Both the position numbers and the translations under genes were made by a program. This document shows, in pieces, positions 2,640-43,119 of a stretch of DNA of 43,119 nucleotides. The stretch is taken from contig JACDGR010000001.1 of assembly GCA_013821525.1 (NCBI GenBank), positions 1-43,119 of the forward strand. The letters are read 5' to 3'. Each line of letters begins with the position of its first letter. Within the stretch, counting starts at the first letter, position 1. This stretch comes from Actinomycetota bacterium (GTDB taxonomy: Bacteria; Actinomycetota; Thermoleophilia; Gaiellales; Gaiellaceae). Under the pieces are notes generated by a model. It saw only the letters and a list, made by a program, of their open reading frames with translations. It ran no database searches and was not told the origin of the DNA.

Positions 2640-4390
2640 TAGACGAACATTCCCGGGAGGCAGGCGGTCGCCATCCTGATGTGACCCGTGTAAGACGGGT
2701 GTAGGCCGTCGATCGTGTACGGGCCGATAGTGGTGTCGGCCTTCCAGAGGCCCGAGTCGCGACTCGTCTCTACGGCGTCCGCCGCCTCGATCACGAGGTC
2801 GCAGAGGCCGCTGGCACCCGCACGGATCCACGCGTTTGCGGCTTTCCGTACCAGCCCCGCTCCGGCCGCGAGCGTCTCCGTCTGGTTGGCGACGGTCGTC
2901 CAGCCGTCCGAACTCGTCGTGCGTGGCGTGATCGTCGACATCGCGACCTTCAAGCCTCTCTGCTTCGCCCATCCGCAGATCGTGGCTGTGTCGGCCTGCC
3001 ACTGTGCGAGCGTGCGACCACCGTAGATGTCGTTTGTGCCGTACGCGTAGAGCAGCCACTTTCCGATACCGAACAGGCCCCGGCGCTGAACACCGTTCGT
3101 GTTCGCGGCGAACTGCTGAGCCGACTCACCACTCTTCGACATCGGCAGCACCGGGTGCGTCGGCTCGAGCGCGATCGTCGCGTACGACTCGAGCGTCCGA
3201 AAGTAGTTCCCCGTGCCAGACAGGATCGAATCTCCGAGCATGACGATAGACGACGGAGCGTTTGACGTGTAGTCAGCAGTAACGGCGGTCGGCACGGGGA
3301 TCACGACGGAACCACCAGAGTTCGTGTTCGCAAACGCGACTCCGCTCGCGTGGGCAATCGTGAGTGGTGCGGTGAGGTAGACCGTGTAGGGATTCGCGAC
3401 GCCCACGATCGTGCGAGCCGTTACCGTTTCAACGTTTCCAGCGGTGTCCAGCGTGAACGTCTGACCACGTAGGGGAGTCGCCGCGTTGACGACCTGCAGC
3501 GTGGTGTCACCGATGTTGGTGGCGGCAGCGAGCGTCGTAGATCCCGATACGGCTGCAACTCCGAACGTACCCGAGTAGATATCGAACGTCGAGAGGTTCG
3601 ACGATGCGGTCGCACCCTGGTCGCTCGAGATCTCGCGATTCGTCCAAACGCCCTGACCGACAACACTGCCAGCAGCGGTGTGGTTCGCGACGAGTACGGC
3701 GCGCAGCGTCGCCGTGTACGGGCTCGACGCTGTCGTCATCCTGATGATCTCTACAACCTCTGTGCCGGAACCGCCGATGCGCATTCGCAGCGGCGAGGGA
3801 CGGTCGACGGGGAGATCGGTTAGCGTGATCGACGAAGCGCCGAGCGTGACGTCGGCTGCTAGCGTGGTGTACCCGCTCGTTGGCACGAGGTTCGTCGAGT
3901 TGTTCGGCGCGAGGATCCGCGTGCGCGCGTAGTACGTCGCGCCTGCTGGTACGTCGGCAGCCACCGGGTCGCTGGTCAGCAGACCGTACCGGTCGAGTCG
4001 CCCGAACCGGTTGCCGCCGAACGTGACGGGATAGATCGTGCCCGACGGGTACTCCAGTGCCGCCTCTATAAGGACTTCGTTGTCGGGGAGAATGTCGGTG
4101 TTCGCGCCCGCCCCGTAGATGAACCGGACGCCGCTCATCGAACCGTACGCCGTGAGCGGCATCCGCCCGGCAAGGATGTTGTTGGGTGTCGCGATTCCCA
4201 GGGCGGAGCGTGCTGGCGCGGCGACTACTAGACGACCCTCGGTGACTCCGAGATCGCTCAGTACGGCCTGGCCGTTGACGAGAAGCTGGCCGCTGGTCGA
4301 CTGGAGAACCGTCTGGTTCGGCGTGTTTCCTAGGAAGATCGGCCCGCCAACGCCGACAGATCCAGAGAACTGTTCGTCCGCTTGTGCCAT
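2639..4390 (-). CDS. Tail fibre protein with C-terminal SGNH/GDSL esterase domain
   Basis: Start at the internal ATG 4390 (MAQADEQFSG...), which forms a TAATG overlap with the upstream stop. 583 aa. The C-terminal part carries SGNH blocks in order: MLGDSILSG (block I Ser), YGTNDIYGG (block III), IDGLHPSYTGH (block V, D-x-x-H). Confidence 0.8.
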   Translation of the reverse strand: MAQADEQFSGSVGVGGPIFLGNTPNQTVLQSTSGQLLVNGQAVLSDLGVTEGRLVVAAPARSALGIATPNNILAGRMPLTAYGSMSGVRFIYGAGANTDILPDNEVLIEAALEYPSGTIYPVTFGGNRFGRLDRYGLLTSDPVAADVPAGATYYARTRILAPNNSTNLVPTSGYTTLAADVTLGASSITLTDLPVDRPSPLRMRIGGSGTEVVEIIRMTTASSPYTATLRAVLVANHTAAGSVVGQGVWTNREISSDQGATASSNLSTFDIYSGTFGVAAVSGSTTLAAATNIGDTTLQVVNAATPLRGQTFTLDTAGNVETVTARTIVGVANPYTVYLTAPLTIAHASGVAFANTNSGGSVVIPVPTAVTADYTSNAPSSIVMLGDSILSGTGNYFRTLESYATIALEPTHPVLPMSKSGESAQQFAANTNGVQRRGLFGIGKWLLYAYGTNDIYGGRTLAQWQADTATICGWAKQRGLKVAMSTITPRTTSSDGWTTVANQTETLAAGAGLVRKAANAWIRAGASGLCDLVIEAADAVETSRDSGLWKADTTIGPYTIDGLHPSYTGHIRMATACLPGMFV

Positions 4391-5082: not shown

Positions 5083-5426
5083 AGGCCCGACACCAGCAGG
5101 TTGAACGCGGGGGTGGAAACTTCGATCTGGCAGAACGGACAGCAACCCTGCGAGATCAGCCGGCGCGCACCGTCAGCGATCGGCGAGGAGAATAGGTTCG
5201 GGCATTCCGCTTCCCAGACTTTGAGGTTCGCGATCGAACACCACGACGGGAACGGCGTCGCGCACGACGGGCACGCGAGACCCGCAGCCATCCTGGATGC
5301 GTAGTCGTGCTGCTCGGTGACGGTGCCGCCGATGTAGACGCCGAGGTCGCGCGATTCGACGCGGCCACGCTGGTAGCCGTACATCTCCTCGTAACTCATC
5401 GGCGGGTGCTCGCGCCAGTCACTCAT
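5079..5426 (-). CDS. Small Cys-rich (zinc-ribbon-like) protein
   Basis: ATG at 5426 overlaps the upstream TGA (ATGA). 115 aa (MSDWREHPPMSYEEMYGYQRG...) with paired cysteines CPSC and CCPFC. The Arg-rich residues upstream in the track ORF were rejected. Confidence 0.6.
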   Translation of the reverse strand: MSDWREHPPMSYEEMYGYQRGRVESRDLGVYIGGTVTEQHDYASRMAAGLACPSCATPFPSWCSIANLKVWEAECPNLFSSPIADGARRLISQGCCPFCQIEVSTPAFNLLVSGL

Positions 5427-13350: not shown

Positions 13351-13535
13351 CAGTAGCCGACGACGAGAGTCTGAACATCCTTGATGTACGTCAGCGCCCA
13401 GTTCGCAGCGGTGATCGCACCCTGCAACTGGTTCGACTTCGCCGCGTTCGACGAGTTCGTCGCCTGCGGAGTCAGGTCCGCAATCACGGTCGTGATCGCG
13501 GAAAGAGCCGTGTTCGTATCGCCAGCAGTCGTCAT
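13350..13535 (-). CDS. Hypothetical small protein (61 aa)
   Basis: ORF-track entry. ATGA overlap with the TerL stop. Confidence 0.55.
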   Translation of the reverse strand: MTTAGDTNTALSAITTVIADLTPQATNSSNAAKSNQLQGAITAANWALTYIKDVQTLVVGY

Positions 13536-15211
13536 CGCTCGTCACTCCTAGGTCGTGGTGCGCGCCGCGTGATCGGATTCACGCGAGCGTGCTTCTTCGC
13601 CGGCAACCCGGCAGGACGGATCGGCCTCGTAGCCCGCAAGTTCCGGACATGCTGCGTGATCGCCATCGCCATCACCCTGTCGTCGTGCGCGCCGGTATCA
13701 GCCTCCGGGCGACCACGATCGTTCCACACAAACGTCCGCATCTCCCTGACGAGATCAGCGTCCCTGAACGCCCCAGGACGATCCCTAAGCGCTTCGGAGA
13801 GCGTCGCGAGCACCGTAGGCCTCGTCGTGCTCGACATCGGGTAGCCAAACGCTCCCGTCTCATCCAGGCTCGACGTCGAATCCTCGTCGAGGTGCGTGTA
13901 CAGGTTCGGGTACGCGTAGCGTTGGCGCAGCAGGATGATCGTTGCCGTGCCATACCCACCGTTCTTCTCAACGGCGAGATGCGCATCGTTGTAGAGGCGT
14001 CCGACCTGCGCGAGTTTGAGGGCGTACTCGTCTTCCGTCCACCCGACGCCGTGCAGGCTCGCGACGGTAACGCCGGTGTCGGTGTCGACGACGTACGCGC
14101 AGTACGCATCCGCCTTCGAACCGACAGGGCGTGCGTCGTGTTCGGCGAGGATCGTGGAGCCGGCGACGTCCGCACCGATCACGTACCGCCGACCAGGCTG
14201 CTTCGACTTCCAGATCCGCAGCGGCCCGTACGGGTTCTCAACGAACCGCAGCACACCACCACCCTTCACCGGCGCGCCGATGATCTCACCACGAAGCTTC
14301 GGCGCTTCGACGATCACCTGGTCGAGACCATGGAAGTACGGACGCCCAGACGACAGGAACGCTTCCTCAGGCGTCGCGGGGTATTCCTGGTGGAACATGT
14401 CGAGCGACCCGCCACACTCGTTCGCGATCGTGTGCCGACGCCACGCAAGTTGCGCGTCGGTGACGCCGATGCGCTCGAGCGCGACCTCGTCATCGTCGAG
14501 CTCGCCAAGCAGCTGGTGGTCGGCGAGTTGGTAGTCCTCGAACTCGTACCACGCGAAGAACAACGGCGTGTACTCGCTGCGTCCGTCGACGGCGCGCTGC
14601 CACTCCTCGTGGAACGTATCGCCTACACCATGGGCGGTCGACTCCAGGATGACGAACGTGCCGGGTTCGTTCGGGACGATCTGCCGGAGCGCGAGCAGCG
14701 TGGAGCGGGCGTCGGGCCAGAACGCAACCTCAGATGCGTGGATGGCTCGCGTGCCAGTTCCGCGACCAACTCCGCTGCGACCACCAGCGGTGAACGTGCG
14801 GAGGCTCGAGCCCGACGTGAACGCGATTCGCTTGCCACGGAGCCCCGTCTTCTTCTGCAGTTTGAGCGCCGGCGGCAGGTTGTCGTACATCTGCTCCGTC
14901 ATCCCATGCAGATACTCGGATGATTCGTCGAGGTGCGCACCGGTGATCGCAGAGAACCGCCTGGTGGTGAACGCGAAGTGCGCGAACGACGCCTGGATCA
15001 CCGTCGACACACCCATCCGTCGCGACTTCAGGATGATGATACGAACCGGCTGCTGAGCCCGCAGGCTTGAGACGATCTCTGCGCGGATGCGACGCTGCAC
15101 GCTGTTCGGCTCGAACACCACCATCTTCCCTGAGCGCCGATCCTCGATGCGCAGGAAACGCCGGTAGTTCTCGAATCGCAGCTTCTCCTGGAGCTCAGCG
15201 ATGGTCGCCAC
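13532..15211 (-). CDS. terL: Terminase large subunit
   Basis: 559 aa. Walker A-like LKSRRMGVST, Walker B/coupling IHASEVAFW. C-terminal RNaseH-like nuclease acidic residues (VIGADVAGS..., AYVVDTD, GAHDDRVMAMA). Confidence 0.9.
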   Translation of the reverse strand: MATIAELQEKLRFENYRRFLRIEDRRSGKMVVFEPNSVQRRIRAEIVSSLRAQQPVRIIILKSRRMGVSTVIQASFAHFAFTTRRFSAITGAHLDESSEYLHGMTEQMYDNLPPALKLQKKTGLRGKRIAFTSGSSLRTFTAGGRSGVGRGTGTRAIHASEVAFWPDARSTLLALRQIVPNEPGTFVILESTAHGVGDTFHEEWQRAVDGRSEYTPLFFAWYEFEDYQLADHQLLGELDDDEVALERIGVTDAQLAWRRHTIANECGGSLDMFHQEYPATPEEAFLSSGRPYFHGLDQVIVEAPKLRGEIIGAPVKGGGVLRFVENPYGPLRIWKSKQPGRRYVIGADVAGSTILAEHDARPVGSKADAYCAYVVDTDTGVTVASLHGVGWTEDEYALKLAQVGRLYNDAHLAVEKNGGYGTATIILLRQRYAYPNLYTHLDEDSTSSLDETGAFGYPMSSTTRPTVLATLSEALRDRPGAFRDADLVREMRTFVWNDRGRPEADTGAHDDRVMAMAITQHVRNLRATRPIRPAGLPAKKHARVNPITRRAPRPRSDER

Positions 15212-15296
15212 TAGATCGAGCCCCCATACGCCACGCTAAGCGCCTGCGACGACTCGACGAGTCCCCTAGTACCTACGAGTTTGCAGGCATTTCGCA

Positions 15297-15647
15297 TCAC
15301 GCGGCCTCGTCCGGCTCGCCAAGCAACAGACTATCGATCGCGATCGAACCACCATGCTCGACCTCCTTCGACTCGCGAAACTGACCCGCCCTCGTGCGCT
15401 CCAGCAACCACGCACCAGCACGCCAATCGTTCATCGCCGCACCACGCACCACGTTCACCAGGGATTCGGTGGCGACGTCCCTTGCCCGCGCCACGTCTGC
15501 TGCAAACTGCGCGTCGGACTCGATCCAGTCGTAGAACATGCGTTCGCTGATTCCGGCTGCGGCAGCTGCGTGGTGGTTGTAGTTGCCAAGCTCGATCGAC
15601 TTGAGGATCGCCGCCTGCACGGTTGGGGTTCGTTTTGTCTGGGCCAT
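15297..15647 (-). CDS. terS: Terminase small subunit candidate (HTH protein)
   Basis: Immediately upstream of terL. HTH-like GNYNHHAAAAAGISERMFYDWI. ATG 15647 (MAQTKR...) was chosen because the longest-ORF GTG at 15671 lies inside the 15662..15689 hairpin. Confidence 0.6.
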   Translation of the reverse strand: MAQTKRTPTVQAAILKSIELGNYNHHAAAAAGISERMFYDWIESDAQFAADVARARDVATESLVNVVRGAAMNDWRAGAWLLERTRAGQFRESKEVEHGGSIAIDSLLLGEPDEAA

Positions 15648-15661
15648 GAGTCCTAGAACGC

Positions 15662-15689
15662 CGAAAGCCACCTGGTGGGGTGGCTTTCG
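15662..15689 (-). terminator. Perfect 11-bp-stem hairpin (CGAAAGCCACC / GGTGGCTTTCG, 6-nt loop), terminator-like
   Basis: Read directly from the sequence. It lies after the stop of 15757..15987 and 14 nt before the terS ATG. The downstream U tract on the minus strand is weak (GCGUUCU). Confidence 0.55.
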
Positions 15690-15756
15690 TCTGGATCTGG
15701 GGATACCAGTCCGCTCGGTAGATTGGCACGTTTTTGGGGGGCTGTCAAGCGGGTTC

Positions 15757-15987
15757 CTAGCGAAACCTCAACTCGCCGCGTTCTTCTTTGTCGAGGAGTG
15801 CTTGGAGGGGGTCGGTGCCGGGTTGGGTTCCGCCGACGCCGCCGACGACGGGGATGCCGCGTAGGTGGTGTTTGCCGGCGGGGGTGGATGCGGAGACTTG
15901 CGCGGCGAGCTCGAGGTCGTCGGGTTCTTTGCCGCGGTTTTGGTTGCCGAGCATCTGGTGGGCGTAGTCGGAGAGGCTGGGGGTCAT
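15757..15987 (-). CDS. Hypothetical small protein (76 aa)
   Basis: Internal ATG 15987 (MTPSLSDYAHQMLGNQNRG...) overlaps the upstream TGA (ATGA). The rest of the track ORF is Arg/His/Pro-rich and looks off-frame. Confidence 0.55.
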   Translation of the reverse strand: MTPSLSDYAHQMLGNQNRGKEPDDLELAAQVSASTPAGKHHLRGIPVVGGVGGTQPGTDPLQALLDKEERGELRFR

Positions 15988-16568
15988 GCGGCCTTCTCTC
16001 CGAGTGTGTCGAGTAGGCGTTGGGCGAGGGTGTCCGCTGCCGGTGGCGCCGCCACTGGTTTCGCTTCGACGATGCCGATGCGTGAGATGCCGCGTTGGAT
16101 GCGTGCGAGCAATTCGGGTGGGCATCCGGTGCCGAGTGCGGGGTCGGATTCGACATCCCATGGCTTGTTGATCAGGATTCGCATGGCGCGTTCGATGTCG
16201 TCTTGCGCTACCCGGTTCGACCAGGTGGATGCGACCCAGACGCCGTAGGCGATCGCGTCGTCGTGTGTCCAGCCGCGCTCGTCGATGGGTGGGTATTTCG
16301 TGATGCGTGCTCGGTAGGCGTGTGCTGCGATCGTTGCGAGGTCGTTGAGCGTGTCGGCTGCGGGCTTCGTTCCTTTGCTGCGTTCTGCGTCCTTGAGGTG
16401 TGCGCCTTGCCGGATCATCGAGGTGAGGGCAGCAGGAGGGTTGTTTGCGTTCGTGGCTCGAGTTGCGACGCGCTCGAATCCTTTGGGGTTCTCGTCGTAG
16501 GCGATGAACATCTCGTTGCGTACGTTCGGGGAGAACTCGTAGTCCCGGATTAGTTCTTGAATCGACAT
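15984..16568 (-). CDS. Hypothetical protein (194 aa), first gene after the repeat-rich spacer
   Basis: ORF-track entry. GAAAGAG lies about 9 nt upstream of the ATG. No motif recognised. Confidence 0.65.
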   Translation of the reverse strand: MSIQELIRDYEFSPNVRNEMFIAYDENPKGFERVATRATNANNPPAALTSMIRQGAHLKDAERSKGTKPAADTLNDLATIAAHAYRARITKYPPIDERGWTHDDAIAYGVWVASTWSNRVAQDDIERAMRILINKPWDVESDPALGTGCPPELLARIQRGISRIGIVEAKPVAAPPAADTLAQRLLDTLGEKAA

Positions 16569-16634
16569 TTTGAAAAGCTCTTTCGATCGGGGGTCCCGGC
16601 TGGGTGGTTTCCGGTTAGGGATGTTTTGGGGCTG

Positions 16635-16690
16635 TCGATCGATCGATTTTTTGATATTTGGGGGAAGAGCTCTTGCTCTTAAAGCTCTTA
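16635..16690. promoter_or_regulatory. Low-GC spacer with short palindromes and GCTCTT repeats
   Basis: TCGATCGATCGA palindrome (16635..16646), T-rich tract ttttttgatattt, AAGAGCTCTT palindrome (16665..16674), and three GCTCTT copies at 16669, 16675 and 16684. Confidence 0.5.
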
Positions 16691-16705
16691 CTGGGTCGGG
16701 GCGGT

Positions 16706-16770
16706 GTTATACGACGCGTTACTAACGCGTCGTATAACGCGTTACGTAACGCGTTACTAAATGCGTTACG
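16706..16770. repeat. Array of five GTAACGCGTTAC-type sites (nested perfect palindromes), candidate iteron or operator bank
   Basis: The ACGCGT cores are at 16714, 16725, 16737 and 16749, with ATGCGT at 16761. Centre-to-centre spacing is 11, 12, 12 and 12 bp. The array includes a 33-bp perfect palindrome (GTTATACGACGCGTTA-C-TAACGCGTCGTATAAC, 16706..16738) and a 20-bp perfect palindrome (AACGCGTTACGTAACGCGTT, 16736..16755). Confidence 0.85.
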
Positions 16771-17122
16771 CATGGAACTTCCCTGCCTCATCGCGGTGCG
16801 TCTCGCGCCACCTCTTCTGCCGATCAGCGACGACCGCTCGATGCTTCGCGAGTTCGGCCTTCGTCGGGTTGCGCTTGTTGAAGTTGTGGATCACGTAGCC
16901 GCTGCCACCGTTGAGTTTCCAGAGGCCCTGCTCGAGGATCTCGTCGAGGATCGCCTTTTTGCCGCGCGTGTACTCCTTCGCGATCGGCGCCGGTAGGTGC
17001 CCGTCCGTTTCGTGCTTCGCGGCGTATCCCCATGAGCGGAGGACGGCTCGGTGCGCGGCGTCGCTGAGTACAACGAGTTTCGGGTCGTCTACGAACGAGT
17101 CGTCGATGCGTAGCCACGTCAC
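16766..17122 (-). CDS. Putative DNA-binding (winged-helix-like) protein, possible replication organiser
   Basis: 118 aa, MTWLRIDDSFVDDPKLVVLSDAAHRAVLRSWGYAAKHETDGHLP...GLWKLNGGSGYVIHNFNKRNP. This W.R.DD.F..DPK...L...A pattern is common in actinophage DNA-binding or replisome-organiser-like proteins (recollection, not searched). The stop codon lies inside the fifth repeat site. Confidence 0.45.
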   Translation of the reverse strand: MTWLRIDDSFVDDPKLVVLSDAAHRAVLRSWGYAAKHETDGHLPAPIAKEYTRGKKAILDEILEQGLWKLNGGSGYVIHNFNKRNPTKAELAKHRAVVADRQKRWRETHRDEAGKFHA

Positions 17123-17616
17123 GCGGCGACCGCCTGATGCAGCATCTGCCGGTAGGCGAGTGCCAGGCCGATCGAGTCGAGTTCGTGTTCGTCGTATTCG
17201 ATGACGATCCCGGAGAACGCGATGTCGGCGACGGCTTCATGCCCTGACGTCTTCGTTGGTCCCGCTCCGAGTGTTTTGCGCCATTCGGATGCGGTCATGC
17301 CGGTGACGCTCATGCGTCGCGGTACGATCGCGCAGAGGGCGCCGTAGATGGGTAGGAGTTTGTCGAGGCCCATGCCGGCGGGGCGTTCGATCGCGACGTT
17401 GGTGATCTCGTAGACGCCAGCATTCCGATTCACTTCCACGATGCAGTCGTGGAGTGCGTCGGCTGCGGCCCTCGTGCGCAACGCTGCCCCGTTCTGGTGC
17501 CCGTCGTGCTGTTCGACGGGGCGGTGGGCGAGCCAAATCTGCATTGGCGGATCGAAGGTGATCGCGGCGCAGTGGATGGCACGCGTGCTCGAGTCAACCC
17601 CCATGACCAAGCTCAC
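17119..17616 (-). CDS. ruvC: RuvC-like Holliday junction resolvase
   Basis: 165 aa. The acidic catalytic residues are in RuvC order: MGVDSST, VAIERPAG, EHELDSIGLA. Confidence 0.75.
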   Translation of the reverse strand: MSLVMGVDSSTRAIHCAAITFDPPMQIWLAHRPVEQHDGHQNGAALRTRAAADALHDCIVEVNRNAGVYEITNVAIERPAGMGLDKLLPIYGALCAIVPRRMSVTGMTASEWRKTLGAGPTKTSGHEAVADIAFSGIVIEYDEHELDSIGLALAYRQMLHQAVAA

Positions 17617-17888
17617 GTGTCCCCCTGTGTGAGGCCGAGCAGGTCGAGGATCGTGTCGACGCCACGGTCGAATGCTTCGCGTTGCACTGTCGTCCAGTCG
17701 TGGTTACCGGCGTCCTCCCACGGGTAGGCGATCCGCGCCCTGATCTCCGCGCGTGCCGCCAACGGATACCAGATGCCGGGTTCGAGGTCTTCGTTCGTGA
17801 CGTAATCGCGAAACGTGCTGAACGTCTTCGATCCCGCCGCGTACTGCGCACGCCATACCGGCACGCCGTGGCTGGTTGGCGGCGTCAC
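17613..17888 (-). CDS. Hypothetical protein (91 aa)
   Basis: Track ORF 17613..17918 trimmed to GTG 17888. That start is preceded by AAGAGGAGG at 5 nt and overlaps the TGA of the 44-aa ORF (GTGA). Confidence 0.6.
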   Translation of the reverse strand: MTPPTSHGVPVWRAQYAAGSKTFSTFRDYVTNEDLEPGIWYPLAARAEIRARIAYPWEDAGNHDWTTVQREAFDRGVDTILDLLGLTQGDT

Positions 17889-18019
17889 GATGCCTCCTCT
17901 TTTCGGACGAACTCCCATGCGGGGTCGTGCGGCTTGAGCAGGACGTACCAGTAGCCGTCACGCTTCGTGAAGCGGTAGCGGTAGAACCAGAGAGACCGCT
18001 TGCGCTTGCGCTCAACCAT
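17885..18019 (-). CDS. Unlisted small basic protein (44 aa)
   Basis: ATG 18019 to TGA 17885: MVERKRKRSLWFYRYRFTKRDGYWYVLLKPHDPAWEFVRKEEAS. It fills the gap between two listed genes and is below the 60-aa track cutoff. It overlaps the upstream gene by 8 nt and is GTGA-coupled downstream. Confidence 0.5.
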   Translation of the reverse strand: MVERKRKRSLWFYRYRFTKRDGYWYVLLKPHDPAWEFVRKEEAS

Positions 18020-18287
18020 CCGATGCCTCCCCGCTCGACGTGAGGACGTCCAGCGTGGCGATTAATGCGATGCACGCATTCGCATGCGGCCCGGGAGACA
18101 TGAGTTGCGGAATCTCCGAGCGCAGGTTTCGCGCCGCTTCGATCACCGCAGTCCGGGCCGCGTCGATGGCAGCCGGGTACGCGACGTGGGTGGGATCCAT
18201 GAACCCAGAGCGGACGAACAGTTCCTGCTTGCCCGTCCCCCAGATCTGCGCGAGTCGCACCCCGTGGGTTTGCGGGTTAGTGGGCAT
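18012..18287 (-). CDS. Hypothetical protein (91 aa)
   Basis: ATG 18287 (MPTNPQTHGV...) with GGAG 7 nt upstream. The longest-ORF start is 18311. Confidence 0.55.
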   Translation of the reverse strand: MPTNPQTHGVRLAQIWGTGKQELFVRSGFMDPTHVAYPAAIDAARTAVIEAARNLRSEIPQLMSPGPHANACIALIATLDVLTSSGEASDG

Positions 18288-18900
18288 CGGGTGCTCCGAT
18301 CGCGAGGGCATCTAAGAGGCCACATGTGCAGGTGCCGTCAATCGTTGGGTCGCGGATGTCGCAGTCGATGTTGTGGATCCACGGGTACTCCATGAACCGC
18401 TTGAGGTCGCGTTCGGCCTGCTCCGCGCGCTCCGTGGCCGCGCGACGGTCATCAATCAGCGCGAGGATCCTCCGCGTGCGCCGGGATACGACATCGAGCG
18501 CGGCGTCGGCGCGGGCCTTCTCGGCGTCACGCTCGATCCTGGCACGGTTCCGCATGCGCTGCCAATCGGCGGGCGTCGTGATGATGCCCTCGCGTTGCGC
18601 CACGGGCTTCGCGTCCACCTGGGGGGCGGCCTCGTCGTTATGGCATACATCTTCCGCAGCGTCTGCCGTGGAAGAAACTCGGCATACCTGGGCCTCGAGG
18701 GTGGCGAGGTTCCGCGTTCCGGGCTTGCGCTCTAGCGCGTCGAGCCGGCGGTTGTCGGCCTGCAGCATCTCCATGTGCTCGCGCTGCTCGTCACGCAGGG
18801 CGAGGAGTTCGCGGGCGAGGACGTACATCAGAACCTCGATCGGCCAGTCGCGACCGATCGCAGGATTCGTCGCAATCTGTTCCAGCGTCGGGTCGGTCAT
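18277..18900 (-). CDS. Hypothetical coiled-coil protein (207 aa) with C-terminal Cys cluster
   Basis: Internal ATG 18900 (MTDPTLEQIATNPAIG...) overlaps the methyltransferase TGA (ATGA). Long Arg/Glu/Ala helical regions. The C-terminus is IDCDIRDPTIDGTCTCG. Confidence 0.6.
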   Translation of the reverse strand: MTDPTLEQIATNPAIGRDWPIEVLMYVLARELLALRDEQREHMEMLQADNRRLDALERKPGTRNLATLEAQVCRVSSTADAAEDVCHNDEAAPQVDAKPVAQREGIITTPADWQRMRNRARIERDAEKARADAALDVVSRRTRRILALIDDRRAATERAEQAERDLKRFMEYPWIHNIDCDIRDPTIDGTCTCGLLDALAIGAPDAH

Positions 18901-19877
18901 CGGTGTGCCTCCAGGAGCGTGAGTTGCTGCAACCGCTTCGCCGCGATCGCGATGTACTCGCTGTTCAACTCGATGCCGACCGCGTGGCGTCCGAGACGAC
19001 GCGCAACAAGCGCCGTCGTGCCGCTGCCCATAAACGGGTCGAGGATCGTGTCGCCCTCGCGGCTGCCCGCCTTGACGCATTTTTCGACGAGTGCCTGCGG
19101 GAATGTTGCAAAGTGTGCGAAAGACGTGGGTTCCGTAGATATGGACCACACGGAACGAGCGTTACGGGCTGCCGGGACCTCACCGGTGAATCTCACGCCG
19201 CCGCGCACCGTGGACTCGTCGTGACCGTCCTTTCGACTGGTGGCCGTCACCCCGGCGAACAGCGAAGCCTCCCGGATCGCGTCCGAATCGTAAAAGTACC
19301 GCGCGCTCTTCGTCATCAAAAAGACATACGAGTGGGCCTTCGTTGGCCTGTCCGTCACGCTCTCGGGCATCGGGTTCGGCCGCGCCCAGATCGTGTCGCT
19401 CCTGAGATACCAGCCGTCCGCGCGCAGGGCGAAGGCGAGCATCCAGGGAGCGCCGACGAGGTCTTTGGGCTTGAGGCCTGCGAGGTTTCGTGGCGCTCGG
19501 TTGCGACCGTTTTCGATGTGCGCGGTCTGCGCGGGCCCGCTTGATATCCGAAATCTGCCGGCACCGTTACCGCCCTCGGCGCGTGGGATCGTGTTACCGG
19601 CTGGCGTGGCGTTGTACGTGTCGCCGCATTCGAGCCACATCACGCCGTCCGACCGGAGTACGCGGCGTGCTTCGCGGAACACGGCGACGAGGCGCGCACA
19701 CCACTCGTCGGGCGTGTCCTCGAGTCCTATCTGACCCTCGCAACCATAGTCCCGCAACCCCCAAAAAGGCGGGCTCGTGACGATGCACTGCACCGATTCG
19801 TCGGGCATCTCGCGCAGGCGCTCGAGGGCGTCGCCTTGGACGATGCGGACGTCGTGGTCGTTGATCATCGACGTCAT
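18897..19877 (-). CDS. Beta-class DNA amino-methyltransferase, SPPF type (predicted N4-cytosine; N6-adenine not excluded)
   Basis: Internal ATG 19877 (MTSMINDHDVRIVQGDAL...), TGATG overlap with the upstream stop. Motif IV IVTSPPFWGLRDY precedes motif I ILDPFMGSGTTALVA, which is the beta-class order. 326 aa. Confidence 0.8.
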   Translation of the reverse strand: MTSMINDHDVRIVQGDALERLREMPDESVQCIVTSPPFWGLRDYGCEGQIGLEDTPDEWCARLVAVFREARRVLRSDGVMWLECGDTYNATPAGNTIPRAEGGNGAGRFRISSGPAQTAHIENGRNRAPRNLAGLKPKDLVGAPWMLAFALRADGWYLRSDTIWARPNPMPESVTDRPTKAHSYVFLMTKSARYFYDSDAIREASLFAGVTATSRKDGHDESTVRGGVRFTGEVPAARNARSVWSISTEPTSFAHFATFPQALVEKCVKAGSREGDTILDPFMGSGTTALVARRLGRHAVGIELNSEYIAIAAKRLQQLTLLEAHR

Positions 19878-20362
19878 CAGCGCACCCCTGTGATGCTCGA
19901 GCACGACCATTCGCGCCAAGACCCATCGCGGCGCACGAGTTGTGCGGCGGCGAGCGAGTTCGCGACGGGGTCGAACACGTCGAAGCTGGCGAATGGTGTG
20001 CGGCGCCACGTCGAGCCGAGGAACTGGAAGACGCCGCTTGCGCCGCTGCCGGCTTCGGCGGTGACTTGCGCGCCCATGCCGGATTCGCAGCGGGCGATCG
20101 TGCGCATCTCGTGTTCGGGTACGCCGAACGCGGCGGCGGCGAGGCGGATGGCGTAGGTGGCGTCACGCTGGTAGCGCACCGCGAGCCGGTGGCGCAGCAC
20201 CTGTCGTTCGTGCTTCGCCCACGCGAGGTCGTGATGGCACTGCTTGACGCTCGCGCATTTCGACGCCGGCCACGCTTCCGTGACGCCCCACGCGGCGCTC
20301 GCCCAGAAGACGACGCACGCGGCGAACAACGCGAACCAGACGAGGGGGGTAGGGAGGGTCAC
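19877..20362 (-). CDS. Membrane-anchored lytic transglycosylase-like protein (SLT-type domain)
   Basis: N-terminal hydrophobic segment LVWFALFAACVVFWASAAWGV, then IARCESGMGAQVTAEAGSGASGVFQFLGSTW (the E-S ... G.FQ...TW signature). GTG 20362 overlaps a TGA at 20359 (GTGA). The longest-ORF start is 20404. Confidence 0.7.
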   Translation of the reverse strand: MTLPTPLVWFALFAACVVFWASAAWGVTEAWPASKCASVKQCHHDLAWAKHERQVLRHRLAVRYQRDATYAIRLAAAAFGVPEHEMRTIARCESGMGAQVTAEAGSGASGVFQFLGSTWRRTPFASFDVFDPVANSLAAAQLVRRDGSWREWSCSSITGVR

Positions 20363-21158
20363 GCTGCCATCTCCATCACGAGGCGTCCGATGTGTTCGGC
20401 GCATTGGGGGACGACGGCGTTACCGAGGGACTTGAGTCTGTCCACCCGCTCGGGAACCCCATGAGCCATTCGACCCACGTCGGGTTCAGGGGTCCAAGTC
20501 CAACCGCCTCGTTTAGCGTCGGGCCACCTGCTCCCGGTCGTGTCGCTCTCTTTGTGTCCGTCTGTCCGCGCTCCCCGTCGCCCGCTCGCGAGGCGTAGGC
20601 CAGCGCAGCGCCATCTTCCGCAGCCCGCCCTCGTTTGGCCGATCCTTCCCCTTCGATCCGCGGGACCCGTTCGCATCCCCCGCAAGCGGCGTCGGCAGCA
20701 ACGATCCAGACGCGATCGCGCTTGTGGGGTGCGCCAACGTCCCGGGCGCCGAACACTGTCCATTCCGCATCGAACCCGAGCGCGGCAAGGTCAGCGAGCA
20801 CGAGGTCGAGTCCTCGAGTAAGGAGCCCTGGGACGTTCTCAGCGATGACGTAGCGGGGTCGAAGTACGCGAATGCATCGGGCGAACTCGGGCCAGAGCCA
20901 TCGTTCGTCGGCTTGTGCGAGTCCTTTGCCGGCGAGGCTGACGGGCTGGCAGGGGAATCCCCCGGCGAGCACGTCGACGCGGGGGGTGTCGGCGTCGATG
21001 GTGCGGATGTCGCCGTACTGGGGGGTGTCGGGCCAGTGGCGGGCGAGGATGCCTCGGCACCACGGGTCGATTTCGCACTGCCACGAGACGCGCATCCCGG
21101 CTCGCTCGAGGCCAAGGTCGATGCCGCCGATGCCGGAGAAGAGGCTGCCGACATTCAC
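20359..21158 (-). CDS. dcm: DNA (cytosine-5) methyltransferase whose conserved motifs are split between reading frames (frameshifted or disrupted)
   Basis: The frame of track ORF 20376..21212 has motif I LFSGIGG, motif IV GGFPCQ, motif VI AENVPGLL and motif VIII APHKRDRVWIVA. Motif X (LGNAVVPQCAEHIGRLV) sits in the -1 frame that ends at 20359. GTG 21158 overlaps the upstream TGA. The 800-nt span equals 3n-1, consistent with a net -1 shift. Confidence 0.75.
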
Positions 21159-21385
21159 TTCTCCGCCCGGATCTTCGCGAGTTCGCGCTTGCCTTTCGGC
21201 GTTACGACCCACCGGACGTATGAGCCGCGTCGGACGGGTTCGCGGCCACTACCGGGCACACGACGAGCATCCGCCGTACTTCCGCTATCAGCGGTTTTCC
21301 GGGTTGGTTCCCCGTCGCAACCATGCGGTTCAACGGGGTGGGGGATTCCTTCATCGAATCCCCCGTTTGAGTCAGTGAGCGGCAT
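21155..21385 (-). CDS. Doubtful small ORF (76 aa); possibly only the 3' third is coding
   Basis: ATG 21385 has a good GGGAGGA box 8 nt upstream. However, hand-counted third-position GC is only about 50% over the first ~45 codons, and the ORF contains the 21340..21364 inverted repeat. The C-terminal SYVRWVVTPKGKRELAKIRAEK part looks more protein-like. Confidence 0.35.
   Translation of the reverse strand: MPLTDSNGGFDEGIPHPVEPHGCDGEPTRKTADSGSTADARRVPGSGREPVRRGSYVRWVVTPKGKRELAKIRAEK
21340..21364. promoter_or_regulatory. Perfect 9-7-9 inverted repeat GGGGGATTC-cttcatc-GAATCCCCC, candidate attP core
   Basis: Read directly from the sequence. It lies 84 bp upstream of the integrase start in a region of weak coding signal. 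The geometry matches tyrosine-recombinase core sites (inverted binding arms around a 6-8 bp overlap). Confidence 0.35.
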
Positions 21386-21447: not shown

Positions 21448-22458
21448 GTGAGTAGCGTTTTTATCGTCAAGCGTGAGCTTGAGATCACTGAGAAGCACCC
21501 CGAGCAACGCTTTCGATTCGTCGTCCGCTGGTCGGAGGGCCGCGCGTACAAGGCGAAGCACCTCGGCTCGTACCCGACTCGCAAACTCGCGGAGACCCGC
21601 CAGCGGGCGGTGCTCGAGCAACTCGCGCGTGGCGAAGTTCCGACCCTGCGGATCCTGCCCGCCACGCGCCACGCGACGACCACGACGCGGATCCTCTGCG
21701 AGCGTTGGTTCGAAACCCGCGTGGACGTGAAGGACACGACGCGGGCGAACTTCCGCAACTCGATCAAGAACATCGTCGAGCGCTGGGGTGACGACGACCC
21801 CCACACGATCAGCAGCGAGGACGTGCAGGCGTGGGTCGCGGATCAGACCGCCGCGAAGAAGAGTCCCGGCACGATCAAGAACCGCCTCGGCTGCCTCTCG
21901 CAGATCCTCGCGTACGGCAAGGTTGAACCGAACCCCGTGCGGGACGTGAAGCTGCCGAAAGGGAAGCGCCGCAAGAGCGCCCTGCCATCCAGGGCCGAGC
22001 TCGCCCGCATGTACGCCGTCCTCCCGGAGAAGAACCGGGGTGTCGTCGCGCTGATGGAGCACGGCGGGCTGCGCGTCTCGTCTGCTGTTGCCGTGACGTG
22101 GGGTGACTGGGATCGCCCACGCCGCCGCCTGCTGGTGAACGACAAGACGGCAGCCGGCGAACGTTGGATCACCCAGATCGACGGTCTGCCCGTGATGCCC
22201 GAACGCCCCGACGGGGTTGCGGATGATGCGCGCGTGCATCAGAACGTGACGGCGAAGAGCGTCCACGCGGCGATGGTGCAGGCGTGCAAGCAGGCGGGCA
22301 TCCGACGGGTGACGCCTCATAGCCTCCGCCATTTGCACGCTTCGCGGCTGATGCACGAGATGGCGATGAGTCCCGCCGAGGTCGCCGTCCGCATGGGGCA
22401 CGCGAGCCCGTCGACCACGATCGCGCTCTATACGCACCTCGTGCCGCCGGAAGGGTAG
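21448..22458 (+). CDS. int: Tyrosine integrase
   Basis: 336 aa. The C-terminal catalytic signature is in order: GGLRVSSAVAVTWGD (Arg), HSLRHLHASRL (H-x-x-R), GHASPSTTIALYTH (His and Tyr nucleophile). It is one of only two + strand genes. Confidence 0.9.
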   Translation: MSSVFIVKRELEITEKHPEQRFRFVVRWSEGRAYKAKHLGSYPTRKLAETRQRAVLEQLARGEVPTLRILPATRHATTTTRILCERWFETRVDVKDTTRANFRNSIKNIVERWGDDDPHTISSEDVQAWVADQTAAKKSPGTIKNRLGCLSQILAYGKVEPNPVRDVKLPKGKRRKSALPSRAELARMYAVLPEKNRGVVALMEHGGLRVSSAVAVTWGDWDRPRRRLLVNDKTAAGERWITQIDGLPVMPERPDGVADDARVHQNVTAKSVHAAMVQACKQAGIRRVTPHSLRHLHASRLMHEMAMSPAEVAVRMGHASPSTTIALYTHLVPPEG

Positions 22459-22834: not shown

Positions 22835-23064
22835 TCGTCCTCCACCTCGACGCACGCGACGAGCTGCTCGCGTGCCAGCCAGAGGGACGCCATCGCGTCG
22901 GCGTACATCTGCTCGCGTGGCGAGCGGATCGCGTCGAACGTCAGGCTCTTGAGCATCTCCTGGTACGCGAGCCGCGCCATCGTCAACGTCTGGTCGAGGG
23001 AGACGATCACGTCGAACGGGCTCGTGCCGTGATCGAGATGGCTGATGTTGTCGGGGTTGCTCAT
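22831..23064 (-). CDS. Hypothetical protein (77 aa)
   Basis: Internal ATG 23064 (MSNPDNISHLDHG...) overlaps the exonuclease TGA (ATGA). Confidence 0.55.
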   Translation of the reverse strand: MSNPDNISHLDHGTSPFDVIVSLDQTLTMARLAYQEMLKSLTFDAIRSPREQMYADAMASLWLAREQLVACVEVEDE

Positions 23065-23864
23065 GCCCACGCCGGACACGAGGACTTGTACGGGCAGCGC
23101 GGGCACGCCCACTGGTGGACGTACCCGTTTTGCGGCCACGGATCGTCGACGCCGAACATCAGGATCATGCTTTCCATGCTCGCGACGATCTGTCCCACCA
23201 TGCGCACCGTGCGGTCAGCCTTCGCTGTCGACCAGGACTCCTCGTACTGCTCACCATCGGACGGCGTGTAGACCGCAGGCACTTTGGTTCGCGTTGTGAC
23301 GTGGAGTCCCCACGGCTTCGACTTCGCGGCCGAGTAGATCCGCGTCTGCAGCCGCCAATCGGGATGGACCGACTTGTTCGCGGCGCCCTTGCGGTCGATG
23401 CCGAACGCCTCGAACTCGACGTCGGTGTAGCCCAGGATCGGAACCGGGAGCGAGTCCCGCTCGATCAGGATCTTCTCCTCGACAGCGATCGGATCGGGCA
23501 TCGACTGTGCCACGGGGTAGTAGGCGCGGATCGTTGGGATGCCGGTGTCGATCAGGCTCGAGGTCGTTTCACCCTCGAGGTCGTACTCGTCCGCTTCCGC
23601 CTTGGCGAGCAGGTGATCGCGGAACGAGTCCTCACAGTCGGAGAGGCTGATGCCGGGACCGCCACCGAGCCGAGCGACGTAGAAGTCCTCAAACGCCTTG
23701 GAGTCCGCCGTGCCGAGCAGGGCTTTGTGCCCTGCTCGGTCGGGCTTCTTGCAGACGTAACGCTGTCGGAAGTTCTCCGGACACCTCAGGAACCTGTTGA
23801 GACTCGACGGCGAGACGTGTTTGATGCCTGCCTCGATGAGCGCGTTGGTGGCGACGGCGCTCAC
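23061..23864 (-). CDS. Cas4/RecB-family PD-(D/E)XK exonuclease with Fe-S cysteine set
   Basis: 267 aa. An N-terminal Cys (LRCPENF) plus C-terminal C-x2-C-x5-C (WACPRCPYKSSCPAW) gives the Cas4/AddB-type four-Cys arrangement. The central ILGYTDVEFE...DRKG resembles nuclease motifs II/III. Adjacent to RecT. Confidence 0.7.
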   Translation of the reverse strand: MSAVATNALIEAGIKHVSPSSLNRFLRCPENFRQRYVCKKPDRAGHKALLGTADSKAFEDFYVARLGGGPGISLSDCEDSFRDHLLAKAEADEYDLEGETTSSLIDTGIPTIRAYYPVAQSMPDPIAVEEKILIERDSLPVPILGYTDVEFEAFGIDRKGAANKSVHPDWRLQTRIYSAAKSKPWGLHVTTRTKVPAVYTPSDGEQYEESWSTAKADRTVRMVGQIVASMESMILMFGVDDPWPQNGYVHQWACPRCPYKSSCPAWA

Positions 23865-24895
23865 GATCCGCTCCCGTACTGCCCGGCTGCTGCGAGTCGC
23901 TCCTGCGTGTTCGTCAGGTCGGCGTTGTCGTTGTCGAGGAACTCCTGAAACGACTCCGCGCCATCGCCCATCGGCACTTCGCCTTCCGCCTCACCCTCAG
24001 CGGGCAGCGGCGTAACGGCCTCGACGAGTGCTGCGAGCAGCTTGTCGCGCGACGTCGCCGCATCGCCGAACCGGTCGAGGATGCCGCGCACGGTGCGCTT
24101 GATCCCGAGGCGATCACACGCGTCGTAAACGGCGTCGCGCTGCCGCTCGTTCAGGCCCTTGATGGTTGCGCTCGCCTGCTGGAACGGAGTAAGGTCGGCT
24201 CCGACCGCAGCCGCATCGCCTTCCAGGCTGCCTGCCTGGTTGGGCTCGACCGACGCATGCTCGTCGGGGGCCACGGCCGGAACCGGATCGACATCGATGA
24301 CCTGTTCGTGCTGGGGGGCGGTCGTCGATGCCGGGGTCTGCTCGCGCTTCCGACGCGGGGCAGGGGTGGGGGTGGGCTCGTCGTCTTCGATCTCACCCTC
24401 GACGAAGACCCGACCGTTGGAGCGCGTCACGCTCGGCGCGTACCACGCGACAGCGTTCGACATTGCCCGCGCGTAGAGCATGTTGCGCTGGAACTTCTTC
24501 CAGACGTCCTTACCGGCGAGCCCCGCCTTCGTGGCATCGTCCATCGAGAAGGTCGACTCGCCACGCTCGATGCCATGCTTGAAGACGGTGACGGTGCAGG
24601 ACGTCGGCTCGGTCGAGTTCGGCGCCCACGTCACGGTGTAGTCGAAGTCCGGATGGTCGTCGAGCAGGCCCGCGAGGATGCCAGCGCCGACGACGGGCTT
24701 GCCCTGGATGATCGCGATGCCGCTCATCGAGACGAACGGCTGCAGCCCCATCTCGGCGCCAGCGCTGATCTTCACGAACGCCTGGAGAGCTTCCTTGGCG
24801 TCGGCGAAGTAACCGCTGTTCGCGAAGTTGGTGGCGATCCGCTGGATGCGGTCGATCTCGCCGTCTTCGGGTACGTAGCGTTCAATGGCGCTCAC
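23861..24895 (-). CDS. recT: RecT-like single-strand annealing protein with long acidic C-terminal tail
   Basis: GTG 24895 overlaps the upstream TGA (GTGA). ...ALQAFVKISAGAEMGLQPFVSMSGIAIIQGKPVVGAGILAGLL... is RecT-family-like. 344 aa. Confidence 0.65.
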   Translation of the reverse strand: MSAIERYVPEDGEIDRIQRIATNFANSGYFADAKEALQAFVKISAGAEMGLQPFVSMSGIAIIQGKPVVGAGILAGLLDDHPDFDYTVTWAPNSTEPTSCTVTVFKHGIERGESTFSMDDATKAGLAGKDVWKKFQRNMLYARAMSNAVAWYAPSVTRSNGRVFVEGEIEDDEPTPTPAPRRKREQTPASTTAPQHEQVIDVDPVPAVAPDEHASVEPNQAGSLEGDAAAVGADLTPFQQASATIKGLNERQRDAVYDACDRLGIKRTVRGILDRFGDAATSRDKLLAALVEAVTPLPAEGEAEGEVPMGDGAESFQEFLDNDNADLTNTQERLAAAGQYGSGS

Positions 24896-25170
24896 GATGC
24901 GATCTCCTGGGGGAAGTCGATGATGTTTCCGTCCTGATCGATCCAGAGCCCGCACTCGCGCAGGTCTTCCTGCGCGTCGGCAAGCTGGCCTGACGCGAAG
25001 ATCACGCGGCAGTCGAGGCCTTCTTCGCCGGTTGCGCGGCGCAAGGTGAGCCAGCGCCAGACGCGGTACGCCTCTTGTGCGGCGAGCACGTAGTGCGTCT
25101 CGGTTAGCACGCTGGGGATCGTCGGCGGTTCGAGGTTGCGCTCGGGAACGGCGTACGGCCTGGCGTTCAT
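24892..25170 (-). CDS. Hypothetical protein (92 aa)
   Basis: Internal ATG 25170 (MNARPYAVPERNLEPP...) overlaps the upstream TGA (ATGA). Confidence 0.55.
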   Translation of the reverse strand: MNARPYAVPERNLEPPTIPSVLTETHYVLAAQEAYRVWRWLTLRRATGEEGLDCRVIFASGQLADAQEDLRECGLWIDQDGNIIDFPQEIAS

Positions 25171-25373
25171 AGTCCGACTGCTCGCAAGAGTCGGTCTGCG
25201 TAGACGCAGAACGTGTCGAGTCCATGGTCGGCGAGAGCGCCGAGGACGATGCACGAGAACGCGAGCAGTGCGAGTTCGAGGCGGTCGCGCTTCCACGCGC
25301 GGTCGCGGTAGTGGCGGATGCGTCGCAGGTTCGCGGTCGCCTGCCCGTACGCGGCGTGCTGTTCGGGGGTCAC
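25167..25373 (-). CDS. Small protein with one predicted TM helix (68 aa)
   Basis: GTG 25373 overlaps the upstream TGA (GTGA). VTPEQHAAYGQATANLRRIRHYRDRAWKRDRLELALLAFSCIVLGALADHG... The N-terminal part of track ORF 25167..25589 was rejected. Confidence 0.55.
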   Translation of the reverse strand: MTPEQHAAYGQATANLRRIRHYRDRAWKRDRLELALLAFSCIVLGALADHGLDTFCVYADRLLRAVGL

Positions 25374-42992: not shown

Positions 42993-43119
42993 TTCCTCAT
43001 GTCAGCGTCGCGTACTTGTAGGTGCCGTCCGGATAGCGCACGTAGAGGCGATGGTTCGTCAGGTCGACACCCGCGATCGTCGTCATGCCGACGGGGACTC
43101 CCGGCTCCTGCGTGCCGAT
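42993..43119. repeat. Terminal direct repeat, right copy (exact duplicate of 1..127)
   Basis: Identical to bases 1..127. Confidence 0.97.

Follow-up and report, generated by a model that had tools for sequence, protein, structure and literature searches.

In phage lambda, the origin of replication sits in the central part of gene O and is made up of iterons with an AT-rich tract at their flank (PMC7466680), and initiators of the RepA_N family bind semi-palindromic iterons through an N-terminal winged-helix domain that is joined to a variable, host-specific C-terminal domain (PMC7145576). Origins in phages of high-GC (that is, guanine- and cytosine-rich) Actinobacteria are almost uncharacterised; the one experimental study on such origins that we found concerns the extrachromosomal mycobacteriophage prophages Miko, Rachaly and Jeeves, for which RepA was both required and sufficient to sustain autonomous replication, and the origin was presumed to lie within or beside repA, with no repeats identified there (PMC7157519). 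Here we analyse contig JACDGR010000001.1 of assembly GCA_013821525.1 (positions 1–43,119; this whole stretch of 43,119 nucleotides (nt) is referred to as the window), which is the genome of a temperate phage, and in particular a spacer of 197 base pairs (bp) at 16569–16765, as measured in an initial annotation of the same DNA and confirmed here. That annotation had suggested an origin from repeated sites next to a readily melting tract and a small protein that binds DNA, and sequence and comparative evidence favour this reading: we estimate a probability of about 0.7 that the spacer is an iteron-type origin between the gene for a DNA-binding half-initiator and a separately encoded partner gene. 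Comparison of the window ends showed that positions 1–127 are an exact copy of 42993–43119 and, given this 127-nt terminal repeat, we treat the assembly as circular with a true genome of 42,992 bp. The window has a GC content of 65.5%, and its minus strand carries nearly all genes. The elements at issue, in order of transcription and with protein lengths in amino acids (aa), are the following.

16766–17122, minus strand: gene for a 118-aa winged-helix protein that corresponds to the N-terminal DNA-binding part of a RepA-like replication initiator and lacks the C-terminal domain
16706–16770: array of five 11–12-bp dyads of the GTAACG-CGTTAC type, the proposed initiator-binding iterons
16691–16706, minus strand: CACCGCCCCGACCCAG box, an apparent remnant of a (CCCGAC)n C-tract repeat
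16665–16689: AAGAGCTCTT palindrome (16665–16674) plus two more GCTCTT, a small conserved hairpin or dyad
16635–16661: A/T-rich tract TTTTTTGATATTT (16647–16659), preceded by TCGATCGATCGA (16635–16646), the proposed DNA-unwinding element
16569–16634, minus strand: rest of the spacer, with a CTAACCGGA box (16610–16618) and the ribosome-binding region before the ATG at 16566–16568
15984–16568, minus strand: 194-aa gene, the helical product of which belongs to a rare family and is the proposed partner in helicase or loader recruitment

Reading of the sequence recovered every core that the initial annotation had placed in the array (that is, ACGCGT at 16714, 16725, 16737 and 16749 and ATGCGT at 16761), together with both of its palindromes: the 33-bp one at 16706–16738, in which two 16-nt arms with 100% complementarity enclose one central base, and the perfect 20-bp one at 16736–16755. 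The fifth site does cover the stop codon of the 118-aa gene (TAA; TTA on the plus strand at 16766–16768), and a perfect site, GTAACGCGTTAC, occupies 16746–16757. The description of one site per helical turn survives in part: the spacings of 11, 12, 12 and 12 bp stand and exact helical phasing does not, as, with 10.5 bp to a helical turn, each 12-bp step rotates the next site by roughly a further 50 degrees, so that the sites are not strictly on one helical face. The period is 12 bp because the units are contiguous 12-bp dyads, and contiguous 11–12-bp dyads are a trait of the family. The sites had been supposed to be confined to this spacer, and a genome-wide count agrees. Four of the 26 ACGCGT sites in the window fall within 41 bp here, five of eight matches to TAACGCGTTA (up to 2 mismatches) lie in the array, both exact ones included, and GTNACG/CGTNAC half-sites number 8 in 70 nt at the array versus a maximum of 4 elsewhere in the genome, a density that none of 200 second-order Markov simulations attained. 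The cluster is unique in the genome and beyond chance. The genome-wide total of 26 ACGCGT is below the 37.6 that shuffles predict, a mild shortfall that is not significant.

Along the direction of transcription, the dyad array is followed by the C-tract remnant, the small dyad and the A/T-rich tract. The three GCTCTT repeats (16669, 16675 and 16684) and the downstream AAGAGCTCTT, TTTTTTGATATTT and TCGATCGATCGA elements are all present as first described, and GC and duplex-stability scans of the genome corroborate the easily melted tract: 60-nt windows below 45% GC occur genome-wide only at 16531–16690, and, of all 20-, 50- and 100-nt duplex segments in the genome, the least stable begin at 16641, 16642 and 16637, respectively. 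An alignment with the spacers of relatives shows which parts past the array are conserved, namely CCCGACCC (the block in which the CACCGCCCCGACCCAG box falls), the AAGAGC/GCTCTTCC dyad, AAATTTAAAAAATCG, CTAACCGGA and the ribosome-binding region. On the gene strand, 16665–16689 reads AAGAGC-N-GCTCTTCC, of which GCTCTTCC is the longest near-invariant block in the alignment; pairing between AAGAGC and GCTCTTCC is retained in six of the seven sequences, with both sides changed in one of them. CCGG is invariant and the surroundings of the start codon are conserved in all seven aligned spacers, and the A/T tract AAATTTAAAAAATCG is conserved in relatives, whereas the GATC repeats are not. In the window, TCGATCGATCGA contains two overlapping GATC sites beside the A/T tract, and the phage encodes N4/N6 and C5 methylases. 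We also considered a programmed frameshift, or a hidden long form of the protein read through the array (a 58-aa alternative-frame open reading frame (ORF) at 16615–16791), and ruled this out: no frame is preserved across the spacer given that conserved blocks shift by 1–2 nt between relatives, and stop codons are few on the gene strand of the spacer because that strand is T-poor.

The initial annotation was wrong in stating that the genome has no recognisable replication gene. The 118-aa protein matches the PHROG profiles phrog_2447 (expectation value (E) 1.6e-24) and phrog_3926 (E 7.3e-17), both of which are labelled replication initiation protein, and tblastn found homologues at 30–39% identity in 259 actinophage records, many of them annotated as RepA-like replication initiator or replication initiation protein. 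As its residues 1–112 cover only positions ~1–116 of the ~300-position profiles, the protein is not the full-length two-domain form (~230–320 aa) but a domain-only short form. An AlphaFold model built from an 85-sequence alignment (predicted local distance difference test score (pLDDT) of 94) has winged-helix topology with a long basic helix at residues 88–109. Nothing in the PDB was significantly similar to this model by Foldseek; the top-ranked matches, among many generic winged-helix hits, were the N-terminal domains of staphylococcal plasmid RepA (4pt7, 4pql and 4pta; E 0.1, template modelling (TM) score 0.40). A Pfam scan of the protein at E up to 1 returned no family, neither Phage_rep_O (PF04492) nor RepA_N (PF06970). 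That the gene adjacent to the array encodes the N-terminal domain of an initiator family strengthens the origin reading, and the locus brings together what characterises an iteron origin: a unique repeat cluster, an adjoining A/T-rich tract and a cognate initiator-family gene in cis.

The closest relatives are short forms too (111–117 aa). In every close locus that we retrieved, a winged-helix gene is followed by an array starting in its last codons, then by a spacer and usually by a gene for a ~190-aa protein, and L001, L002, L008, L013, L016 and L017 each have a homologous array at the corresponding position. The half-sites remain G[T/A]NACG while details drift: sites are of the GTAACGCGTTAC type in the window and L001, GTAACGGCGTTAC in L008, GTCACGCCGTGAC in L002 and L013, GAAACGCCGTTTC in L017 and CGTACG-type in L016. 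As the 33-bp perfect palindrome is not kept even in the closest relative, L001, it is the repeated half-sites rather than a long hairpin that constitute the conserved feature. A comparison of protein and site co-variation, in which L001 and L002 have almost the same first ~88 residues in the winged-helix domain and yet differ in their sites, is uninformative given that the variable site positions are probably not read. In L016, an extra 110-aa ORF (1030–1362), which reads as a helix-turn-helix, excisionase-like protein, lies between the origin-like spacer and the gene for a 197-aa protein; on the basis of this insertion, the spacer stays with the winged-helix gene and not with the 194-aa-family gene. 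Arthrobacter phage Sonali gp49 (L010) is another short form (129 aa), with a 189-bp downstream gap (3890–4079). The Sonali gap opens with GCATTGC, GCATTGC and an inverted GCAATGC followed by (CAGA)n/(CATA)n low-complexity sequence, and it ends in AAAAAGTAATCAATCAATCG, which resembles AAAAAATCGATCGATCGA of the window.

Distant relatives were collected by a scan of IMG/VR viral contigs, which yielded 80 loci (L021–L100; 26–39% identity) that collapsed at ~60% identity into 29 non-redundant clusters. We measured repeat density by taking, in each ~5-kb locus, the 100-nt window richest in 6-mers that recur at least 3 times on either strand. This densest window is centred between -10 and +200 nt from the end of the winged-helix match in 23 of the 29 clusters (binomial P ~9e-26). 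As most of the distant genes encode 230–320 aa, their arrays are intragenic, at the junction of the N- and C-terminal domains. On inspection, many of the arrays consist of 11–12-bp dyads, often of the GTNACG-CGTNAC type (for example, AGTCACGCCGTG repeated in L037, five copies of GTCACGCGTGA in L093, and GTAACGCGTTAC in L094). Across the 29 clusters, G[TA]NACG half-sites in that interval number 98 versus 28.8 expected, with an excess that is individually significant in 13 of the 29; the remaining clusters use different words. The genes downstream of the long forms encode resolvases and methyltransferases and not packaging proteins and, given this context and the placement of the arrays, we conclude that the array travels with the initiator domain, not with a terminase or late operon. 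By BLAST, the C-terminal domains of the long forms (L021–L100 and L009) make up at least 14 groups that are unrelated to one another, suggesting that C-terminal modules may have been exchanged at or near the internal repeat array.

A second element accompanies the arrays. In 20 of the 29 clusters, a run of at least four C3+ tracts comes after the dyad array, between -30 and +300 nt from where the winged-helix match ends, and such runs are seldom met in other parts of the loci; they include (CCCGAC)n, (CCCATA)n and (CCCCGT)n (for example, in L037, L093, L094, L046 and L084), and the strand opposite them, (G3N3)n, could form G-quadruplexes. In long genes the tracts encode proline-rich linkers, and in the short forms L046, L084 and L094 they are non-coding and lie past the stop codon, because of which they look like DNA-level elements. 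These data bear on the idea that the array and C-tract box of the window are a decayed remnant, that is, the leftover linker-coding middle of a truncated full-length initiator gene with no current function. Such sequences do encode an inter-domain linker in the long forms (SRRESRRD and DPTRPDPT), and all that the window retains of the C-tract repeat is a short CCCCGACCC piece. Nonetheless, we regard decay as improbable: the short form and its array, with multi-copy dyads intact, have been kept in at least five diverged lineages (32–70% protein identity), C-tract runs persist as non-coding DNA in the three short forms named above, and two perfect 10-bp TAACGCGTTA sites and two perfect palindromes are not expected to survive unconstrained decay.

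The other half of the proposed initiator would be the 194-aa protein, for which we found no match in Pfam, PHROG, PDB sequences, known phages (tblastn) or Foldseek. A profile of ten family members found only 27 representatives among 1.84 billion proteins. The N-terminal ~65 residues of the family correspond to the C-terminal domain of three longer proteins (P0035, P0036 and P0039), the N-terminal halves of which match 'replication initiation O-like' PHROGs (P0039, phrog_391, E 2.9e-17; P0035, phrog_345, E 7.6e-7; and, more weakly, P0036, phrog_391, E 3.7e-4); hhalign supports the shared domain in P0036 and P0039 (95.7% probability, E 1e-8). In L102, a family member is ATGA-coupled to a 158-aa, weakly O-like protein, the gene of which holds five TGACGCCGGTGTCA dyads and a AAGAGCTCT palindrome; in L101, the elements ahead of a distant member are a TTCACG/CGTGAA array, four C-tracts, GCTCTT and a stretch rich in A/T. 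As the family is fused to, coupled to or separated by an origin-like spacer from origin-binding domains, it appears to be their recurrent partner. The AAGAGC/GCTCTT dyad was also seen upstream of 194-aa-family genes in the window (16665–16689), L102 (839–869), L101 (~120–135) and L001 (6620–6639), in L102 even though the neighbouring winged-helix protein is of a different family; either the 194-aa protein itself or a host factor could use the dyad as its site. Simple gene fission of a long form was considered as the source of the arrangement and rejected, because neither the 194-aa protein nor the downstream proteins of other short forms have BLASTP similarity to long-form C-terminal domains, nor did the C-terminal half of Dropshot gp42 give a match. 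The term 'split initiator' may thus apply functionally, through domain fusion to O-like initiators, and not as a demonstrated fission. Sonali gp50, the first residues of which (MTDIQEL) recall those of the 194-aa protein (MSIQEL), was likewise ruled out as a homologue (hhalign probability 0.1%).

On these grounds we propose a mechanism in which the whole 197-bp spacer would act as a theta-type phage origin with 16706–16770 as its iterons. The 118-aa protein would bind the five contiguous GTAACG-CGTTAC dyads, probably as dimers, to form a nucleoprotein array; the array would then distort the DNA such that the A/T tract at 16641–16661, ~45–60 bp away in the direction of transcription, opens. Host replication proteins would subsequently be recruited, probably through the 194-aa protein, given that no helicase, primase or polymerase was found among the examined genes of the phage. 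We infer each of these roles (that is, protein–site binding, unwinding of the A/T tract, the partnership of the 194-aa protein and origin activity itself) from the DNA and its relatives. A broader, three-part proposal is possible yet doubtful when all parts are taken jointly: that a two-piece initiator flanks the origin, that the C3+ tracts are a family-wide second element and that the array is a site of C-terminal module exchange. Under the first part, a stand-alone origin-binding protein and a separate recruitment protein would do what single-gene relatives and lambda O do with the origin carried inside the gene; under the second, tracts such as (CCCGAC)n could be a strand-opening or factor-binding element in high-GC phages.

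Further alternatives arise from the gene neighbourhood, in which transcription runs from the methylases through the 165-aa gene, the 118-aa gene, the 197-bp spacer, the 194-aa gene, a 76-aa ORF and the genes for the terminase small (TerS) and large (TerL) subunits to the portal gene. Besides the elements listed above, the surrounding features are as follows.

23861–25225: RecT-like gene, first of these genes in transcription order
23061–23864: exonuclease gene, after the RecT-like gene in transcription order
21448–22458, plus strand: tyrosine integrase gene
20376–21212: C5 DNA methylase gene
18897–20009: N4/N6 DNA methylase gene
17119–17616, minus strand: 165-aa protein gene, with a weak RuvC-like PHROG match (E 0.022)
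15757–15987, minus strand: unlisted 76-aa ORF (MTPSLSDYAHQ...GELRFR), the ATG of which overlaps the stop codon of the 194-aa gene (ATGA)
15297–15671: TerS gene, ~0.9 kb from the spacer, which is upstream of it
13532–15211: TerL gene

In the early region and the flanking genes examined, we found no helicase, primase, polymerase or other replication gene besides the 118-aa gene, and blastn of 13500–19000 against known phages gave no match. The position just upstream of the winged-helix gene is held in relatives by a RusA-family resolvase (L001, 5751–6179; L008, 2503–2946); the 165-aa protein is not this RusA (BLASTP E 0.99), and its presence at the fixed position looks like a non-orthologous resolvase replacement. 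The 76-aa ORF has no PHROG match, and genes of 76–80 aa lie in the same position in L001 and L002; it is probably part of the same unit as the 194-aa gene.

This layout lends some weight to a transcriptional explanation, in which the 118-aa protein would be a regulator and the array an operator bank that switches or terminates transcription into the 194-aa gene, the terminase genes and the structural genes. The spacer is situated where early DNA-metabolism genes give way to the block leading to TerS and TerL, the 118-aa protein is a DNA-binding domain alone, and the spacer's downstream half (GCTCTTCC, the A/T tract and CTAACCGGA) is better conserved than the array, as would be the case in a promoter or leader. 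However, a scan of 15600–17700 (blind to non-canonical promoters) found no sigma-70-like promoter site on either strand, the same interval has no minus-strand terminator-like site, and there is no Rfam match and only a weak consensus fold (-4.2 kcal/mol, with the array unpaired) that would indicate a structured RNA. Moreover, in most relatives the array is inside a long initiator gene with DNA-metabolism surroundings and no late operon nearby, and a better promoter candidate is available in a perfect TTGACA in a separate gap directly before TerS. We therefore consider control of transcription unlikely as the explanation of the array, and the multi-operator promoter that the initial annotation had offered as its alternative is disfavoured by the same facts (that is, no promoter-like site, and arrays in relatives that are intragenic and far from late genes), although control-region and origin roles are not mutually exclusive. 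The gap before TerS (15650–15756, minus strand) has its -35-like TTGACA at 15743–15748 with a poor -10, and could itself serve as a late promoter, a terminator or a packaging signal. A perfect 10-bp stem, GAAAGCCACC/GGTGGCTTTC (~15665–15691), overlaps the listed GTG start of TerS, the true start of which may be the ATG at 15647.

With TerS and TerL shortly downstream in a genome transcribed one way (~0.9 kb to TerS), the repeats might instead be sites for the terminase small subunit, that is, a packaging signal or genome terminus (pac, cos or a terminal-repeat junction), and some metagenomic contigs do begin (L015) or end (L008) within the array. We give this reading very little credence: arrays in the family track the initiator domain and not the terminase, those of the long forms being in genes flanked by a resolvase and a methylase, and both the window and the L011/L012 genome (assembled twice at 46,326 bp, each time from another point) come out as circles whose start points differ, which speaks against a fixed end. 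Contig breaks inside or just after the array were seen in three loci (L008 ends at 3336, L015 starts at 1 and L005 ends at 5369); they most likely reflect breakage at short repeats, a common assembly effect, and a physical DNA end would look alike.

Several points weigh against the origin proposed here. The initiator label of the family derives from annotation and a remote resemblance to plasmid RepA; to our knowledge, no family member has been tested experimentally, and our literature search found no paper on this initiator family. Without its C-terminal domain, the 118-aa protein may have been recruited as a simple DNA-binding regulator, and the closeness of the spacer to the boundary of early and packaging genes makes an additional transcriptional role possible. 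The link between the 194-aa protein and initiators consists of three proteins in which its N-terminal domain is fused to another winged-helix family, at whole-library E values of only 3e-5 to 9e-4, if with support from hhalign, and by BLASTP the protein is not homologous to any long-form C-terminal domain. Finally, the cumulative GC skew has its minimum at 15526, ~1.2 kb off the array, a point that counts weakly, as the skew turn is uninformative when genes share one strand.

The outcome is a testable candidate origin of ~200 bp with two small genes, and a seeming rule for a widespread initiator family, in which the winged-helix domain is followed at once by the binding-site array, either within the gene or immediately beyond it. 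If true, this rule would make it possible to annotate origins in hundreds of sequenced actinophages and provide compact replicons for Actinobacteria vectors, as well as a functional lead for the rare orphan 194-aa family, and the locus would illustrate a way for an initiator gene to be divided at the origin inside it.

How the locus relates to known systems can now be specified. Phage lambda lacks a helicase and polymerase of its own and uses host enzymes, and its origin repeats are longer than those described here and spaced apart. As in lambda, the repeats of the window have internal dyad symmetry and are followed by an A/T-rich tract along the direction of transcription, the arrays of long-form relatives have the same relative position (that is, the N-/C-domain junction) as lambda ori in gene O, and no helicase or polymerase was found among the examined genes of the phage. 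In contrast to lambda, the sites are contiguous 11–12-bp units, the proposed origin is non-coding and lies between two genes, the 118-aa protein has no Phage_rep_O match (Pfam, E up to 1) and a P-like helicase loader is not recognisable in the phage. Many RepA_N plasmids carry iterons within the rep gene. The variable C-terminal domains of RepA_N initiators (we compared pSK41, pTZ2162 and Vibrio PLE RepA) parallel the at least 14 C-terminal groups of the long forms; nevertheless, the 118-aa protein has no Pfam match to that family, its structural similarity is not significant (E 0.1, TM score 0.40) and the iterons of the window lack a central poly-A tract, and RepA_N initiators belong to Firmicutes plasmids whereas the present family is found in phages of the high-GC Actinobacteria type. 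The RepA of Miko, Rachaly and Jeeves is from a different, longer family (320–350 aa) related to pMSC262-type plasmid Rep, for which reason that study was set aside as evidence on the 118-aa family (PMC7157519).

The nearest comparison is with the RepA-like initiators of actinophages (for example, Microbacterium phages Dropshot and Appa gp42), which share a homologous N-terminal domain (30–39% identity) and a dyad array and C-tract repeat after it, and which differ in being 230–320 aa long with a C-terminal domain and a coding array. In Dropshot, a 270-aa homologue is followed by genes for a helicase loader and a DnaB-like helicase; no such loader or DnaB was found among the examined genes of the phage described here, and its initiator-family protein stops at the array, after which comes the unrelated 194-aa protein. 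The two-gene arrangement, the family-wide rule of array position and the accompanying C-tract repeat appear to be undescribed in the literature, and the kind of origin to which they would belong is a known one, represented by lambda ori/O and the RepA_N plasmids.

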